Virus record (IMG/VR): IMGVR_UViG_2030936005_000025
Location: 160,001-224,000 of that record
Direction: 5' to 3' (one strand)
Source: a virus
Lineage: Duplodnaviria; Caudoviricetes
DNA: 64,000 bases
Shown here: in pieces, positions 5,348 to 42,681 of the stretch
Layout: each line of letters opens with the position of its first letter
How positions within the stretch are numbered: position 1 is the stretch's first letter
Made by a program: the position numbers and the translations under genes
The notes under the pieces: generated by a model
Database searches by the model: none
What the model saw: only the letters and a program-made list of their open reading frames with translations
What the model was told of the DNA's origin: nothing

Positions 5348-6145
5348 TTAAATCATTTTCAATAGGATTTCTTTCTCTGGACTGTTGTTCAGAGACCGGA
5401 TAGATCGTGCAACCATTTGCGGAGTAGAAGCCGTGCTCCAATGTGCTACATCTGCAAGTTGCTTGACTTCATTCTTTACAGCAATAGACTGAGAATAGAA
5501 GTTAATCGAGTTGTCCCCAAAGATTTGAATAGTTAATGTATTCATGGGGATGTTTGTCAATTTATCTGAACCCGTGAGCTTAGTATAGAACTGTGTGTAA
5601 TTCTTTATTGCTCCAGTGTGGGACTCAAGCAAGTTAAGTCGGCCGTAGGCTTTTGTCGTGACCAGGTCAACAGGATGACTGGTTAAGATTAAAGCTTGTC
5701 CAGCAAACTCAGGGATTACACTATCAACGTGGTTGATGTTCTTACCAAACTCAGGCAGAAGTTTATCAATAACGCTCTTGTCGAGCTGAGCAATTTCCTT
5801 CTGCTTGTCAGTTCCGTCCTTCTCTACATTCTTAAGCTTGGCCAATGGAAACAGCGCCGGAAGTCTCCGGTACGATGGATAGTAAAACTTGATATCCAGA
5901 TCTGTTTTCAATTTCAAAGCAACGATCGCTTCAGCCAACCCAATGATATCCTCTTTACATGCTTGATACAGTTCAGAGGGTGTTGGGACATATTGATCAT
6001 AAGCTTGTCGAGCATTACGAACAATGGTTCTTAGATTGATGAGAAAGGAATGGTATTTATACATCGGGACATTGGGTAATGCCTCCAATGCTAAAGCAGT
6101 ACCCACACTTATGGGTACCGTACCTTTAGTCCTTTCAACTGCCAT
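5348..6145 (-). CDS. conserved protein, phiKZ gp66-like (possible nuclease fold)
   Basis: 265 aa between the SbcD-like and SSB-like genes; SVGTALALE N-terminal motif; synteny. Confidence 0.55.
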   Translation of the reverse strand: MAVERTKGTVPISVGTALALEALPNVPMYKYHSFLINLRTIVRNARQAYDQYVPTPSELYQACKEDIIGLAEAIVALKLKTDLDIKFYYPSYRRLPALFPLAKLKNVEKDGTDKQKEIAQLDKSVIDKLLPEFGKNINHVDSVIPEFAGQALILTSHPVDLVTTKAYGRLNLLESHTGAIKNYTQFYTKLTGSDKLTNIPMNTLTIQIFGDNSINFYSQSIAVKNEVKQLADVAHWSTASTPQMVARSIRSLNNSPEKEILLKMI

Positions 6146-7271
6146 TCATGACCTCGTCGAGTAAGTCCGCTAACATGTCACGATCAATGTCGTCATTCTG
6201 TTGAAGCGTGGATTCCATAAAGTTAAACAAACTATCCTTAAGGTTTCCATGGGTCAATGCCACACCGTTATACATTTCGGGAATGTACAGTGTATCATCG
6301 ATCTCGATGTTGTCCTCTTTAACATTCTCTAAGTCAAACGCGTATTGCGGATATTGCTCTTTGAAGTCATTAATCAGAGGTGTGGTAACAGATGACAATC
6401 CACCCACTAAACGAATGTGAGTGTTCTTCGGTGGTAACTTCGCTAAGTAATTGTTCAGTTCCTTTGCGACCTGCTTTGTATCCATCTCTTTATTGATCAG
6501 GATCTTATCATAGATCAGTGCGTTCTTGTTTTCCCAGAACTCAGCTTTGAAATCCTTGTCGTTAAACTCAAAACGATAAGCACCTTTTGGATGCATCTCA
6601 CCATGTGCGGTACGGTCAAATGAACCGGCACAATAAATGTTGAATCGTGTTGAGGGTTTGTGAATATGTCCGCTGAAGATGGCGTGCTTAGCTAACGCAC
6701 TCCACTTAACAGAATCATACAACGCACCTTTCTTGTTTGCCATTGGTGGAAGTTGATAATCAAACCCACCGTGCAAGAAGATGAAGTCTACCTGAGTCAG
6801 GTTCCACTCAGCCAATAACTTCAGGGCATTGTCGTAAATGATATCTGTAGATGTGTGACCGAAGTTATCCGGTACATACATACAGTGAATCTTCAACTCA
6901 GGAATGTACTCAATACTCAAGGTATTAATGTACTTGATATAAGGACTGTCCTTTGGCTTCAAGATATCAAAGCACTCAGGTTGCCCCCAATCGTGGGAAG
7001 AGGTTCCTTCCAGGACTCTGACATGAACTTTATTATCATGGCAGATTTGCAAGTGTTTCTTAATCCAACGATGACAGAGCATCATGTTTGGATCATTGGC
7101 CGGTGCTAAGTCGTGGAAGAAATCCCCATTCAGCACATTCAGATCAATCTCTGCCAGATTCGTTTCTTTATAGTAGAACGTATCCAGGTTGTTAAGAATA
7201 TGCCGCGTGGGAGTATTCGGGTGTATGGTGTGGTGATCGGTTGTTAAAACCGCTTTAAACATCTTTTTCAT
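6135..7271 (-). CDS. SbcD/Mre11-like metallophosphoesterase nuclease
   Basis: Motifs TDHH, GDFFH, GTSSHD, FLHGG, GHIH. Confidence 0.88.
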   Translation of the reverse strand: MKKMFKAVLTTDHHTIHPNTPTRHILNNLDTFYYKETNLAEIDLNVLNGDFFHDLAPANDPNMMLCHRWIKKHLQICHDNKVHVRVLEGTSSHDWGQPECFDILKPKDSPYIKYINTLSIEYIPELKIHCMYVPDNFGHTSTDIIYDNALKLLAEWNLTQVDFIFLHGGFDYQLPPMANKKGALYDSVKWSALAKHAIFSGHIHKPSTRFNIYCAGSFDRTAHGEMHPKGAYRFEFNDKDFKAEFWENKNALIYDKILINKEMDTKQVAKELNNYLAKLPPKNTHIRLVGGLSSVTTPLINDFKEQYPQYAFDLENVKEDNIEIDDTLYIPEMYNGVALTHGNLKDSLFNFMESTLQQNDDIDRDMLADLLDEVMNGS

Positions 7272-31051: not shown

Positions 31052-31089
31052 AAAAATAATGTAGATGAAAAAAGAAAATAGATAATAGA

Positions 31090-31117
31090 CCTCTACTACC
31101 TAATCAGGTAGTAGAGG
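31090..31117 (-). terminator. intrinsic terminator
   Basis: cctctactacct-aatc-aggtagtagagg. Confidence 0.75.
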
Positions 31118-31123
31118 AATAAA

Positions 31124-31561
31124 TTACAAAGCTGAACGGAAAGGAATACCCCACGTAGGGAGACGTTGAAGACCTAGCTTTTTATACTGAATCGCTATGC
31201 ACTCAATCTCTCTGAACTTCATGGGACCTTTTGGTTTACCAACGATTAAGGGAACACCACCTGGATACTGAGTGATATAACAACAACCACCGGTCCATTT
31301 GACTTTGAACATTGCGCTGCGCAGTAATCCATCGGACCCCATATAACGGAGTCGCATGAATTTGATATTCCAGTAACGAAGTTCTTGAATGTCACTTAAA
31401 AGAAACTTTCTCTTTAAGTCATCAATCTTCTTTTCGTTATACTTACGCCACCCAATCTTGATATCCCACCAACGACGCTGGAACCAATTTGACTTGATGT
31501 CCTTAGCACCACTAACTTCATAGAGAAACTCAGTGATGTTACTGCTGTTGATCTCTCTCAT
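31124..31561 (-). CDS. hypothetical basic protein
   Basis: 145-aa ORF. Confidence 0.7.
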   Translation of the reverse strand: MREINSSNITEFLYEVSGAKDIKSNWFQRRWWDIKIGWRKYNEKKIDDLKRKFLLSDIQELRYWNIKFMRLRYMGSDGLLRSAMFKVKWTGGCCYITQYPGGVPLIVGKPKGPMKFREIECIAIQYKKLGLQRLPTWGIPFRSAL

Positions 31562-31563
31562 GG

Positions 31564-32463
31564 CTACCAGTCACTTGCCAGAGAGTTTAACTCAGTCAAC
31601 ATCATGTCATACCAGTTAACAGCATCAGTACGATCAATCGAGAAGAAGAAATGAACCATCCCAACTTTGATCCGAACATATTTACCTAACTTCACTTGCG
31701 TCATGGTAACTTCGGCACTGGGGAACCAAGGATAGGTTACGATGATACCAGGTCCGAAATTCCCGTTAGCATATCGGTCACGGATATCATTAATGACGTG
31801 ATGCATTTCGACCTTATGATCCTGAACAAATGCCAACATATTCGCTGCCATCAATTTCTTATCGGCAACGTGCTCAGGGAAGTCAATCCACCAATCACCC
31901 AGTAAACTTTTGGTAATACTGTCATGAGAGAACAACACGTCAACCGGTTTATCTGAAACAGTGGTAGTGTCTACCTGGGACAGAACAGTTTTCATTTTGT
32001 TAGCAAAAACTACTTTGTCACCTGTTGTTTCAGATTCAGCCACTTTAGTGGAATCACCACCGATATCACGGTTATCAGAAATAGAAACACGATATGCGCC
32101 ACTACCCGCTTCTTCTACCTGGAAGAAGATATCATGATGGACACTGTTGAGAGAACCCAGGTCATCCCAATACAGGGCGATATATACACGGTTATAACGA
32201 ATACCGTCTAAACGATCGCGTTGTACTCGACCACCGATTGCTTTGACATCTTTGTCAACACCAGAGGCAAAGATAGTGGTCAACGGAGGTGGGATAATAA
32301 CAACCTGAATATCGCTGTTGTGGAAGAATTCGTTCACAACTGTATTGATGGTATCAATAGAAACCATACTCGGTAACTGAATACCGATGATGCCCTGCTG
32401 AAGTGGATTGGATTCCAGTTTGTGCTGGATCATCTTAACAAAGTTTACGCCGGTAACATTCAT
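31564..32463 (-). CDS. hypothetical protein
   Basis: 299-aa ORF. Confidence 0.75.
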   Translation of the reverse strand: MNVTGVNFVKMIQHKLESNPLQQGIIGIQLPSMVSIDTINTVVNEFFHNSDIQVVIIPPPLTTIFASGVDKDVKAIGGRVQRDRLDGIRYNRVYIALYWDDLGSLNSVHHDIFFQVEEAGSGAYRVSISDNRDIGGDSTKVAESETTGDKVVFANKMKTVLSQVDTTTVSDKPVDVLFSHDSITKSLLGDWWIDFPEHVADKKLMAANMLAFVQDHKVEMHHVINDIRDRYANGNFGPGIIVTYPWFPSAEVTMTQVKLGKYVRIKVGMVHFFFSIDRTDAVNWYDMMLTELNSLASDW

Positions 32464-41820: not shown

Positions 41821-42060
41821 ATGAAAGATCAGATACCTGAAGGTTTTGTTCCAGATAACTTTAAGTTCATCAGTAACCAACCTCATTTAACAGTCAGTGG
41901 TTTTACTATGGTTAATCCCTTGGCCACCAAACTGTTAGTTGAAGTAGAGCGTCAATTAAAATCACCGCGCAATGCGATGCAAAAGAAAACAAGATCACCT
42001 TTAGATGTTCCTTCTTCTGGAATGTTCTATTGGTCACCTCTCAATTCAGTAGGAAAGTAA
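41821..42060 (+). CDS. hypothetical protein
   Basis: ORF abutting both neighbours. Confidence 0.65.
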   Translation: MKDQIPEGFVPDNFKFISNQPHLTVSGFTMVNPLATKLLVEVERQLKSPRNAMQKKTRSPLDVPSSGMFYWSPLNSVGK

Positions 42061-42315
42061 ATGAAAGTTGTGATTTACGGAAAACCTGCGTGCGTGTTCT
42101 GTACTCGTGCGAAGGACTTAGTTAAGGCCAAAGGAATCGATCATGAGTATGTCGATATCATCGAAACCGGCATGGGTCGTGAAGGCCTGGAAGAAATTGT
42201 GGGAGGTCCTGTTACGACCGTTCCTCAAATCTTTGTCGATAATGTTCATATTGGTGGTTATACTGATCTGGTATCTCACCTTGTCAAGTCTGACGAATCC
42301 GAAGTAAAGGTGTAA
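42061..42315 (+). CDS. glutaredoxin
   Basis: CVFC active site, TVPQIF, IGGY. Confidence 0.92.
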   Translation: MKVVIYGKPACVFCTRAKDLVKAKGIDHEYVDIIETGMGREGLEEIVGGPVTTVPQIFVDNVHIGGYTDLVSHLVKSDESEVKV

Positions 42316-42317
42316 TT

Positions 42318-42455
42318 ATGGATTTTGATTTGGATGATCTGAACCTTGAAGGTTTGGATGAAGCTGAAGCTCGTAACAATGAGCGCCAGGAAGCGGCTGA
42401 TAAAGCTGCGGCAGCGGTTGGCGATGAAGCTGACTGCGAAGGTTGTAAAATCTAA
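42318..42455 (+). CDS. 45-aa acidic peptide ending DCEGCKI (NrdA C-tail-like; absent from the ORF track)
   Basis: MDFDLDDLNLEGLDEAEARNNERQEAADKAAAAVGDEADCEGCKI, starting 2 nt after the glutaredoxin stop. Confidence 0.75.
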   Translation: MDFDLDDLNLEGLDEAEARNNERQEAADKAAAAVGDEADCEGCKI

Positions 42456-42481: not shown

Positions 42482-42619
42482 ATGAAAAAGAAAAAGACTT
42501 CTTTGAAAGAAAAGATCCGTCGCCAGAATCAGAATGCTGAGAAGACCTTATACCTCGATGGCGCTGGTGATACTTTCACGATGACCAAAACCAAAGACGG
42601 CTATAAGTTAAACGTGTAG
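42482..42619 (+). CDS. small basic protein (45 aa, absent from the ORF track)
   Basis: MKKKKTSLKEKIRRQNQNAEKTLYLDGAGDTFTMTKTKDGYKLNV. Confidence 0.55.
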   Translation: MKKKKTSLKEKIRRQNQNAEKTLYLDGAGDTFTMTKTKDGYKLNV

Positions 42620-42681
42620 GGTAGCAATACCCTACTCCTATATTTCATCTCCAACCACTACTATGACCGAGAGAGAAGAAT

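Follow-up and report, generated by a model that had tools for sequence, protein, structure and literature searches.

The window analysed here is a 64,000-nt stretch that covers positions 160001-224000 of a complete virus record of 264,203 bp. The closest cultured relative of the virus, a jumbo phage, is Erwinia phage AH04 (Meadowvirus), which shares 79.6% DNA identity with it at the locus described below. Within the window, a 79-aa ORF, a glutaredoxin (Grx) gene, a 45-aa acidic peptide gene and a strongly basic 45-aa ORF lie one after another and form a small operon (Table 1). The stop codon of the 79-aa ORF directly abuts the ATG of Grx. The Grx gene is terminated by TAA at 42313-42315; it is followed by two bases (TT) and then by the ATG of the peptide gene. 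The initial annotation had reported an acidic 45-aa ORF that starts 2 nt after the Grx stop and ends in ADCEGCKI, and the coordinates of the gene confirmed it. The Shine-Dalgarno sequence of the peptide gene overlaps the last Grx codons, so translational coupling of the peptide gene with Grx is likely. The peptide contains 15 Asp/Glu residues versus 4 Lys/Arg residues; it has two Cys and no His.

Table 1. Coordinates of the peptide operon and of the PF13876 proteins that bear the same tail. Positions without a locus prefix are those of the window.
Feature	Position	Strand	Remark
79-aa ORF	41821-42060	+	First gene of the small operon
GrxA-family (Grx1-type) glutaredoxin, 84 aa	42061-42315	+	PF00462, E 1.5e-16
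Shine-Dalgarno AAGGTG of the peptide gene	42307-42312	+	5 nt before the ATG, read from the sequence
45-aa acidic peptide gene, stop included	42318-42455	+	PHROG 10239 member
Peptide central part (about residues 13-33), predicted amphipathic helix	42354-42416	+	From the fusion model, via alignment
Peptide C-terminal tail (residues 36-45), DEADCEGCKI	42423-42452	+	NrdA-type dithiol motif
Codon of peptide Cys40	42435-42437		
Codon of peptide Cys43	42444-42446		
45-aa strongly basic ORF	42482-42619	+	Last gene of the operon
Terminator-like hairpin	42616-42645	+	T-rich tail; closes the unit of 79-aa ORF, Grx, peptide and basic ORF
PF13876 tail carrier	L196:1913-2266	-	
PF13876 tail carrier	L178:2822-3178	-	
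PF13876 tail carrier	L186:1753-2106	+	
PF13876 tail carrier	L220:1164-1517	+	

The two outer ORFs of the operon were also inspected. The 79-aa ORF has no match in Pfam or PHROG; one homologue (OBP_013, L142:1283-1516) precedes Grx in Pseudomonas phage OBP, and the order of tRNA-Asn, small ORF and Grx recurs among the OBP-like jumbo phages examined. Homologues of the basic ORF follow the peptide in AH04 (AH04_14) and follow Grx in contig G001 (L004:6884-7027); the ORF is missing from Pantoea phage Survivor. It is possible that the basic ORF acts together with the acidic peptide or with Grx.

Homologues of the peptide fall into 16 clusters at 90% identity. All of them are exactly 45 aa in length, and both Cys residues and the final Lys-Ile are invariant; Cys40 and Cys43 (of the 45 residues) are also invariant across 30 family members. 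When the peptide gene was compared with those of AH04 and of a 260-kb IMG/VR relative, the dN/dS values were 0.09-0.13 at dS values of 1.2-1.6, and all the alternative frames are interrupted by stops in one or both relatives. Judged from these sequence comparisons, the 45-aa ORF is a protein-coding gene under strong purifying selection, as indicated by its conserved length and by the dN/dS of about 0.1. In AH04, the gene is annotated as AH04_15, hypothetical. The only family assignment of the peptide is PHROG 10239 ("unknown function"), which matches residues 2-45 at profile positions 6-47 of 47 (E 8.5e-9); one 42-aa relative matches the same profile at 1e-13. The family is unnamed in Pfam, NCBIfam, the PDB, the ESM Atlas and the literature.

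It is very improbable that the ORF is what remains of the 3′ end of a decayed nrdA, or that it is an untranslated chance ORF. Its small size, its low complexity and its place outside Pfam and NCBIfam would fit such an origin. However, its length is constant, its dN/dS is about 0.1, it has its own Shine-Dalgarno sequence and start codon, and its flanks carry no nrdA-like sequence. Moreover, at least five phage lineages contain homologues, as do 43 of the 151 genomes sampled from the host family, where the copies are single-copy units with their own terminator. An nrdA pseudogene remnant was ruled out by the purifying selection and by the wide family.

The gene upstream of the peptide encodes, by its profile score, a GrxA-type (Grx1) glutaredoxin: it scores 89.7 bits with NCBIfam NF008401 (GrxA), versus a cut-off of 84, and the active site reads CVFC. 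Grx1 is a physiological reductant of the C-terminal redox tail of NrdA, the large subunit of ribonucleotide reductase (RNR). The initial annotation had tied the peptide to the neighbouring glutaredoxin, and this tie is upheld by conserved adjacency and by natural Grx-peptide fusions. In AH04, the gap between the two genes is 2-4 nt. In G001 they are still adjacent, with the order inverted and a tRNA in between; Grx also adjoins the peptide in two further contigs of 267-271 kb. In Pantoea phage Survivor, Grx and the peptide are fused in frame at the orthologous locus, which contains tRNAs, Grx and then thymidylate kinase downstream. A second fusion, 80% identical to that of Survivor, comes from metagenomes. 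The fused form of the peptide ends in CAV instead of CKI.

In the AlphaFold2 model of one natural fusion (P0020), the Grx1-like core is predicted with pLDDT of ∼95; the closest PDB entries to the Grx domain are those of E. coli Grx1 (1GRX/1EGO), with 51-52% identity. The core is accompanied by one helix (residues 131-151, pLDDT about 90), which corresponds to the middle of the peptide when mapped by alignment. The pLDDT of the terminal Cys segment is 50-70, so the tail is probably flexible.

For two successive steps of an electron relay, fusion is what would be expected; for an inhibitor of that Grx, it would be self-defeating. This bears on an alternative that we consider unlikely, in which the tail mimic is a competitor or decoy at the site receiving the genuine NrdA tail, either on thioredoxin/Grx1 or in the active-site channel of NrdA. 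Such a decoy would, with equally low probability, throttle or re-route the regeneration of host RNR, or divert host reductants; it would be the equivalent, in bacteria and phages, of the small disordered regulators of RNR in yeast. The tail matches NrdA ends equally well for a decoy, and copies are present in phages without their own Grx, NrdA and NrdB and, in one case, in an early-gene region; the chromosomal copies come with a promoter-like box and a terminator of their own, which would suit a regulator. However, the decoy is hard to reconcile with a Grx-blocker being fused to the phage's own Grx. The NrdB, Grx, ThyA-type and Tmk genes that the phage carries also suggest a need for more dNTP synthesis, not less.

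Grx is also found without the peptide, in the OBP-like phages that infect Pseudomonas, Aeromonas, Kosakonia and Serratia. The Grx of Kosakonia phage Kc263 (L144:1519-1887), annotated as 'thioredoxin glutathione reductase', has a C-terminal extension of ∼35 aa; this extension contains a single Cys, is without a C-terminal Cys pair and is unrelated to the peptide.

The initial annotation had noted that nrdA is missing from the window. HMM and tblastn searches confirmed it, and nrdA is also missing from the whole 264-kb genome. PF02867, PF00317 and NrdD gave zero HMM matches in the whole phage genome, and tblastn of the genome with two host NrdA, one host NrdE and two phage NrdA queries returned only noise. 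The genome thus encodes zero NrdA/NrdE, which refutes the earlier suggestion that the arm is supplied in trans to a tail-less phage NrdA; the check proposed along with it, whether the NrdA of this genome lacks the C-terminal cysteines, has no enzyme to be applied to. A tail-less phage NrdA was also rejected for the eight other peptide-bearing phage genomes, which are devoid of NrdA as well; this count of zero in nine is not statistically informative, the base rate of NrdA being ∼8% of phage records.

Outside the window, the phage encodes one orphan class Ia NrdB (genome positions 31068-32198, locus L003:9069-10199), which is 78% identical to the NrdB proteins of Pantoea, Erwinia and Escherichia. 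The C-terminal tail of NrdB is the part that binds NrdA. The C-terminal residues of the phage NrdB are nearly the same as what we take to be the E. coli NrdB end; by eye, the phage protein also contains what are presumably the iron-ligand and tyrosyl-radical motifs of E. coli NrdB. Like this genome, AH04 and G001 carry NrdB and Grx without NrdA. The NrdB match in G001 is in two pieces (5894-6511 and 6800-7090), as if split by an intron or inserted element. As a host-like NrdB is carried and NrdA is not, the phage appears to depend on host NrdA; as it is without NrdA, any reductase served by the peptide must be the host's.

The initial annotation had likened the end of the peptide to the E. coli-type NrdA end (DDGCESGACKI). 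We confirmed this type of end on 75 enterobacterial nrdA loci: the 75 NrdA proteins from Enterobacterales and Pasteurellales carry an acidic stretch followed by CESGACKI or a near variant, with CX4C spacing. The likeness is real and stronger than had been claimed, as some phage NrdA proteins share the identical terminal heptapeptide. The NrdA of Enterobacter phage Nando ends in EDCEGCKI, with CX2C spacing as in the peptide. The end Cys-x-x-Cys-Lys-Leu/Met is found in the NrdA proteins of T4-like phage RB32, Klebsiella phages LilPanda and Muenster and E. coli phage arall; Asp precedes it in all of them except arall. The host class Ib NrdE proteins (loci L262-L267) end in EGCVSC(A/S)L, also with CX2C spacing. 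The free peptide thus joins the spacing of NrdE and phage NrdA to the Lys-Ile end of the NrdA type.

This likeness is limited to the end of the proteins. The family HMM aligns to just the last 9-10 residues of NrdA tails, with scores of 8-21 bits; the CX4C tails of host NrdA score 3-9 bits, which places them at the top of 661 C-terminal 50-mers and barely above noise. When the last eight residues were kept constant, the segments of NrdA tails that precede them scored no better than their shuffled versions. Homology of the whole peptide to NrdA tails was rejected, as the N-terminal motif scored only 4 bits with two phage NrdA tails, not above shuffles. NrdA was not reported by whole-genome searches with the family HMM at E<=10, and no NrdA match was returned by a word search among longer proteins or by a phmmer search of the PDB from the peptide. 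Because the likeness is confined to the end, we file the peptide as NrdA-tail-like at the motif level and not as an NrdA homologue. In terms of the features of an RNR tail, the peptide has the Cys pair, spaced by 2-4 residues, among its last ∼10 residues, and it has an acidic flexible segment before the pair (an Asp/Glu-rich lead-in, followed by the tail of low pLDDT). It is a stand-alone 45-aa ORF without covalent attachment to the catalytic barrel of NrdA/NrdE, and it shows no detectable homology past the terminal motif.

To define the carriers of this end, IMG/VR was scanned for exact matches to Asp-Cys-Asp/Glu-Gly-Cys-Lys-Ile-stop; 111 stretches matched, and 80 of them were fetched and sorted. 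Full NrdA proteins, 755-781 aa long unless truncated by the end of the locus, accounted for 11 of the 80, free peptides or their N-extended relatives for about 25, PF13876 (N4 Gp49 / Sf6 gp66) proteins bearing the tail for 4 and other small ORFs for 3. The other class, with about 38 of the 80, consists of copies of one 133-aa ORF. This recurrent, non-acidic ORF ends in LDCEGCKI (L155:6839-7240, + strand, and ∼38 other IMG/VR loci) and is the antisense shadow of one 173-aa KilA-N-like gene (L155:6895-7416, - strand). It therefore counts once, as a chance event, and it inflates the raw motif counts. Full-length NrdA makes up about a quarter of the fetched coding instances. Taken together, the scan classes indicated that the terminal heptapeptide is a specific, portable C-terminal motif; among its carriers, NrdA alone has a known function. 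The PF13876 (Phage_gp49_66) proteins are 118-119 aa in length and have the same acidic linker and a DDCEGCKI-type end (Table 1). As the NrdA-type tail is also found on this other protein body, a wider docking role of the module is possible.

In a reading that we consider fairly unlikely, RNR would be just one carrier of the acidic Cys-pair end, a portable module aimed at a different partner, and the target of the peptide would be unrelated to RNR. Binding of a metal or an Fe-S cluster together with Grx, docking on a different host protein and redox switching are conceivable functions of such a module. Its presence on PF13876 proteins and on several unrelated small ORFs, the early-gene copy in one T7-like phage and the extra Cys-rich N-terminus of one variant are consistent with such a role. 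The same can be said of the host copies, which adjoin a DUF808 membrane protein gene and not nrd genes, and of the window Grx, which has CVFC, not CPYC; Pro-less dithiol glutaredoxins can hold Fe-S clusters. However, each peptide offers two Cys and zero His, the recurring neighbours are genes of deoxynucleotide metabolism, and in NrdA, the sole carrier with a known function, the Cys pair is a redox shuttle.

The peptide family was found in at least five phage lineages. Searching phages by tblastn with the 45-mer gave no match, possibly as the query is short and of low complexity; a 63-aa relative gave matches. In Wellington-type jumbo phages, which are without NrdA, NrdB and Grx, a 62-63-aa version is located between thymidylate synthase and a MazG-like gene. 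Erwinia phage Y3 encodes a 51-aa version between dCMP deaminase and thymidylate synthase, and the Chaseviridae-like Erwinia phages (Fifi44) encode a 101-aa version 1.4 kb from thymidylate synthase. The 94-aa version of T7-like Salmonella phage KKP 3828 (L140:2857-3141) is located among the early genes, just upstream of the T7-like RNA polymerase; this family member has an extra Cys-rich N-terminal segment.

Among 23 IMG/VR phage loci with a free peptide, 13 have a Grx, ThyA, dCMP deaminase or MazG-like gene within 0.1-3.5 kb, and this dNTP-gene neighbourhood spans four unrelated phage lineages. Compared to an expectation of ∼10% for one lineage, which is a rough estimate without a formal test, the recurrence is unlikely to be due to chance. 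Together with the Grx adjacency and the Grx fusions, the recurrent ThyA, dCMP deaminase and MazG neighbours support a putative role of the peptide in redox and dNTP metabolism.

Chromosomal homologues were identified by a profile search of 1.84 billion representatives, followed by genome searches; raw counts of DNA patterns in host genomes were left out, as they are mostly out-of-frame noise. The 43 positive genomes among the 151 sampled, all of GTDB-Enterobacteriaceae, have one copy each and include the host genera Erwinia and Pantoea. The family was found in none of 400 evenly drawn Gammaproteobacteria, and a blastn search of complete E. coli genomes for the gene of the 46-aa subfamily described below was negative. 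The chromosomal homologues are unlinked to nrd genes; in Erwinia and Pantoea they follow yedI, and elsewhere they form a solitary unit.

Two host subfamilies could be distinguished. Subfamily 1 is 46 aa in length, ends in CGDACKI and occupies varying chromosomal sites. Its copies are compact units of ∼260 bp, with a conserved -10-like box, a Shine-Dalgarno sequence and a terminator (loci L095-L108). The conserved box consists of TTGC, 1-2 bases and then TATACT, which we take to resemble a -10 element of the sigma-S type with C at -13; the 46-aa subfamily is possibly a stationary-phase or stress gene. Upstream of the bacterial copies, inspection by eye revealed no NrdR, Fur or other operator, and the -10-like box and the Shine-Dalgarno sequence alone are conserved. 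Subfamily 2 is 43 aa in length, and its end, DEADCEGCKI, is identical to that of the phage peptide; in each of the four Erwinia and Pantoea genomes examined, it immediately follows yedI.

Our preferred reading, which we hold tentatively and at somewhat less than even confidence, is that the peptide is a free-standing RNR-tail-like dithiol arm that is charged by Grx and acts on host NrdA. The acidic, partly helical segment would serve as spacer or docking element, and the flexible Asp-Cys-x-x-Cys-Lys-Ile-COOH end would provide the redox-active dithiol. The two cysteines would cycle between the dithiol and disulfide forms, and the disulfide would be reduced by the GrxA-type Grx encoded 2 nt upstream or, in phages without Grx, by host Grx1 or thioredoxin. 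The reduced arm would then hand electrons to its target, most likely the active-site cysteine pair of host class Ia NrdA. NrdB, Grx and the arm could in this way form one kit that drives the host catalytic subunit for the dNTP supply of the phage. The thiol-disulfide exchange with Grx and the delivery to host NrdA are steps that we infer.

Several observations argue against such a relay. Host NrdA already bears its own tethered tail, so that a diffusible arm would bring no obvious gain, and the similarity of the peptide to NrdA ends after the last 9-10 residues. The host homologues are unlinked to nrd, the fused form ends in CAV, and the Grx of OBP-like phages is found without the peptide. The tail on PF13876 proteins and its place in the early host-takeover region of a T7-like phage would fit a more general docking motif. 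In its widest form, the proposal is that a diffusible NrdA-type arm, charged by Grx or thioredoxin, is made by enterobacteria and many of their phages and sets the regeneration rate of host RNR, by feeding or by gating; we regard this form as doubtful.

RNR regeneration via the C-terminal cysteine pair is textbook knowledge, and the arm has always been viewed as part of the large subunit. Here, about a quarter of the enterobacterial genomes sampled, as well as jumbo, Chaseviridae-like and T7-like phages, encode what may be a copy of the arm as a separate gene. If the arm does act on RNR, it would represent a new layer of control over dNTP supply, a new way for reductase-less phages to exploit the host enzyme and, as a small-protein effector of bacterial RNR, the first of its kind; together with Grx and the orphan NrdB, it would serve phages to take over the host catalytic subunit. 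This idea is directly testable with the existing E. coli RNR assays and with tail-mutant NrdA proteins. Even without a link to RNR, the analysis defines a strongly conserved, uncharacterised family of small proteins whose C-terminal motif is portable.

The C-terminal redox tail of the class I RNR large subunit has a described mechanism (PMC6187632; PMC4078304). Glutaredoxins are among the RNR reductants (PMC6187632), and redoxins act at the C-terminal cysteines of RNR (PMC6187632; PMC4078304). Like this tail, the motif of the peptide is located at the extreme C-terminus, with an acidic flexible lead-in, a Cys pair and then Lys and one aliphatic last residue; its 7-mer, DCEGCKI, is identical to some phage NrdA ends. 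Different from the tail, the peptide is a separate 45-aa product with no reductase body attached, and its N-terminal two thirds are without significant similarity to NrdA. The tail cysteines of E. coli NrdA are Cys754 and Cys759. The NrdA proteins of the likely hosts have CX4C spacing, whereas the peptide has CX2C. The peptide also shares with the class I RNR tail a link to a GrxA-type reductant, in its case by genetic association.

PHROG 10239 matches the peptide end to end; it is without an assigned function or host members, and nothing in it points to RNR or Grx. We found no description of a separately encoded RNR tail that is present across hosts and phages and is sometimes fused to Grx alone. 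In yeast, Sml1, Spd1, Dif1 and Hug1 are small, intrinsically disordered regulators of RNR. Like them, the peptide is small and largely disordered, with no sequence relationship between them; the yeast proteins act as inhibitors and have no conserved Cys pair at their end, and at least Sml1 competes with the C-terminal region of R1. To our knowledge, no such small disordered RNR regulator is known in bacteria or phages.

Together with the redox-tail mechanism, fusions of Grx to RNR subunits are already known (PMC6187632). In the Grx-ATP-cone-NrdB protein of Facklamia ignava, the Grx domain is fused to an RNR component (PMC6187632), and in Delftia phage PhiW-14 a Grx-like stretch lies under the annotated alpha subunit. 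Like the Survivor type described here, these fusions physically join a Grx reductant to parts of the RNR electron path. In the known fusions Grx is attached to the catalytic or radical subunit, whereas in the Survivor type it is attached to the tail-like peptide only, in a genome without NrdA.
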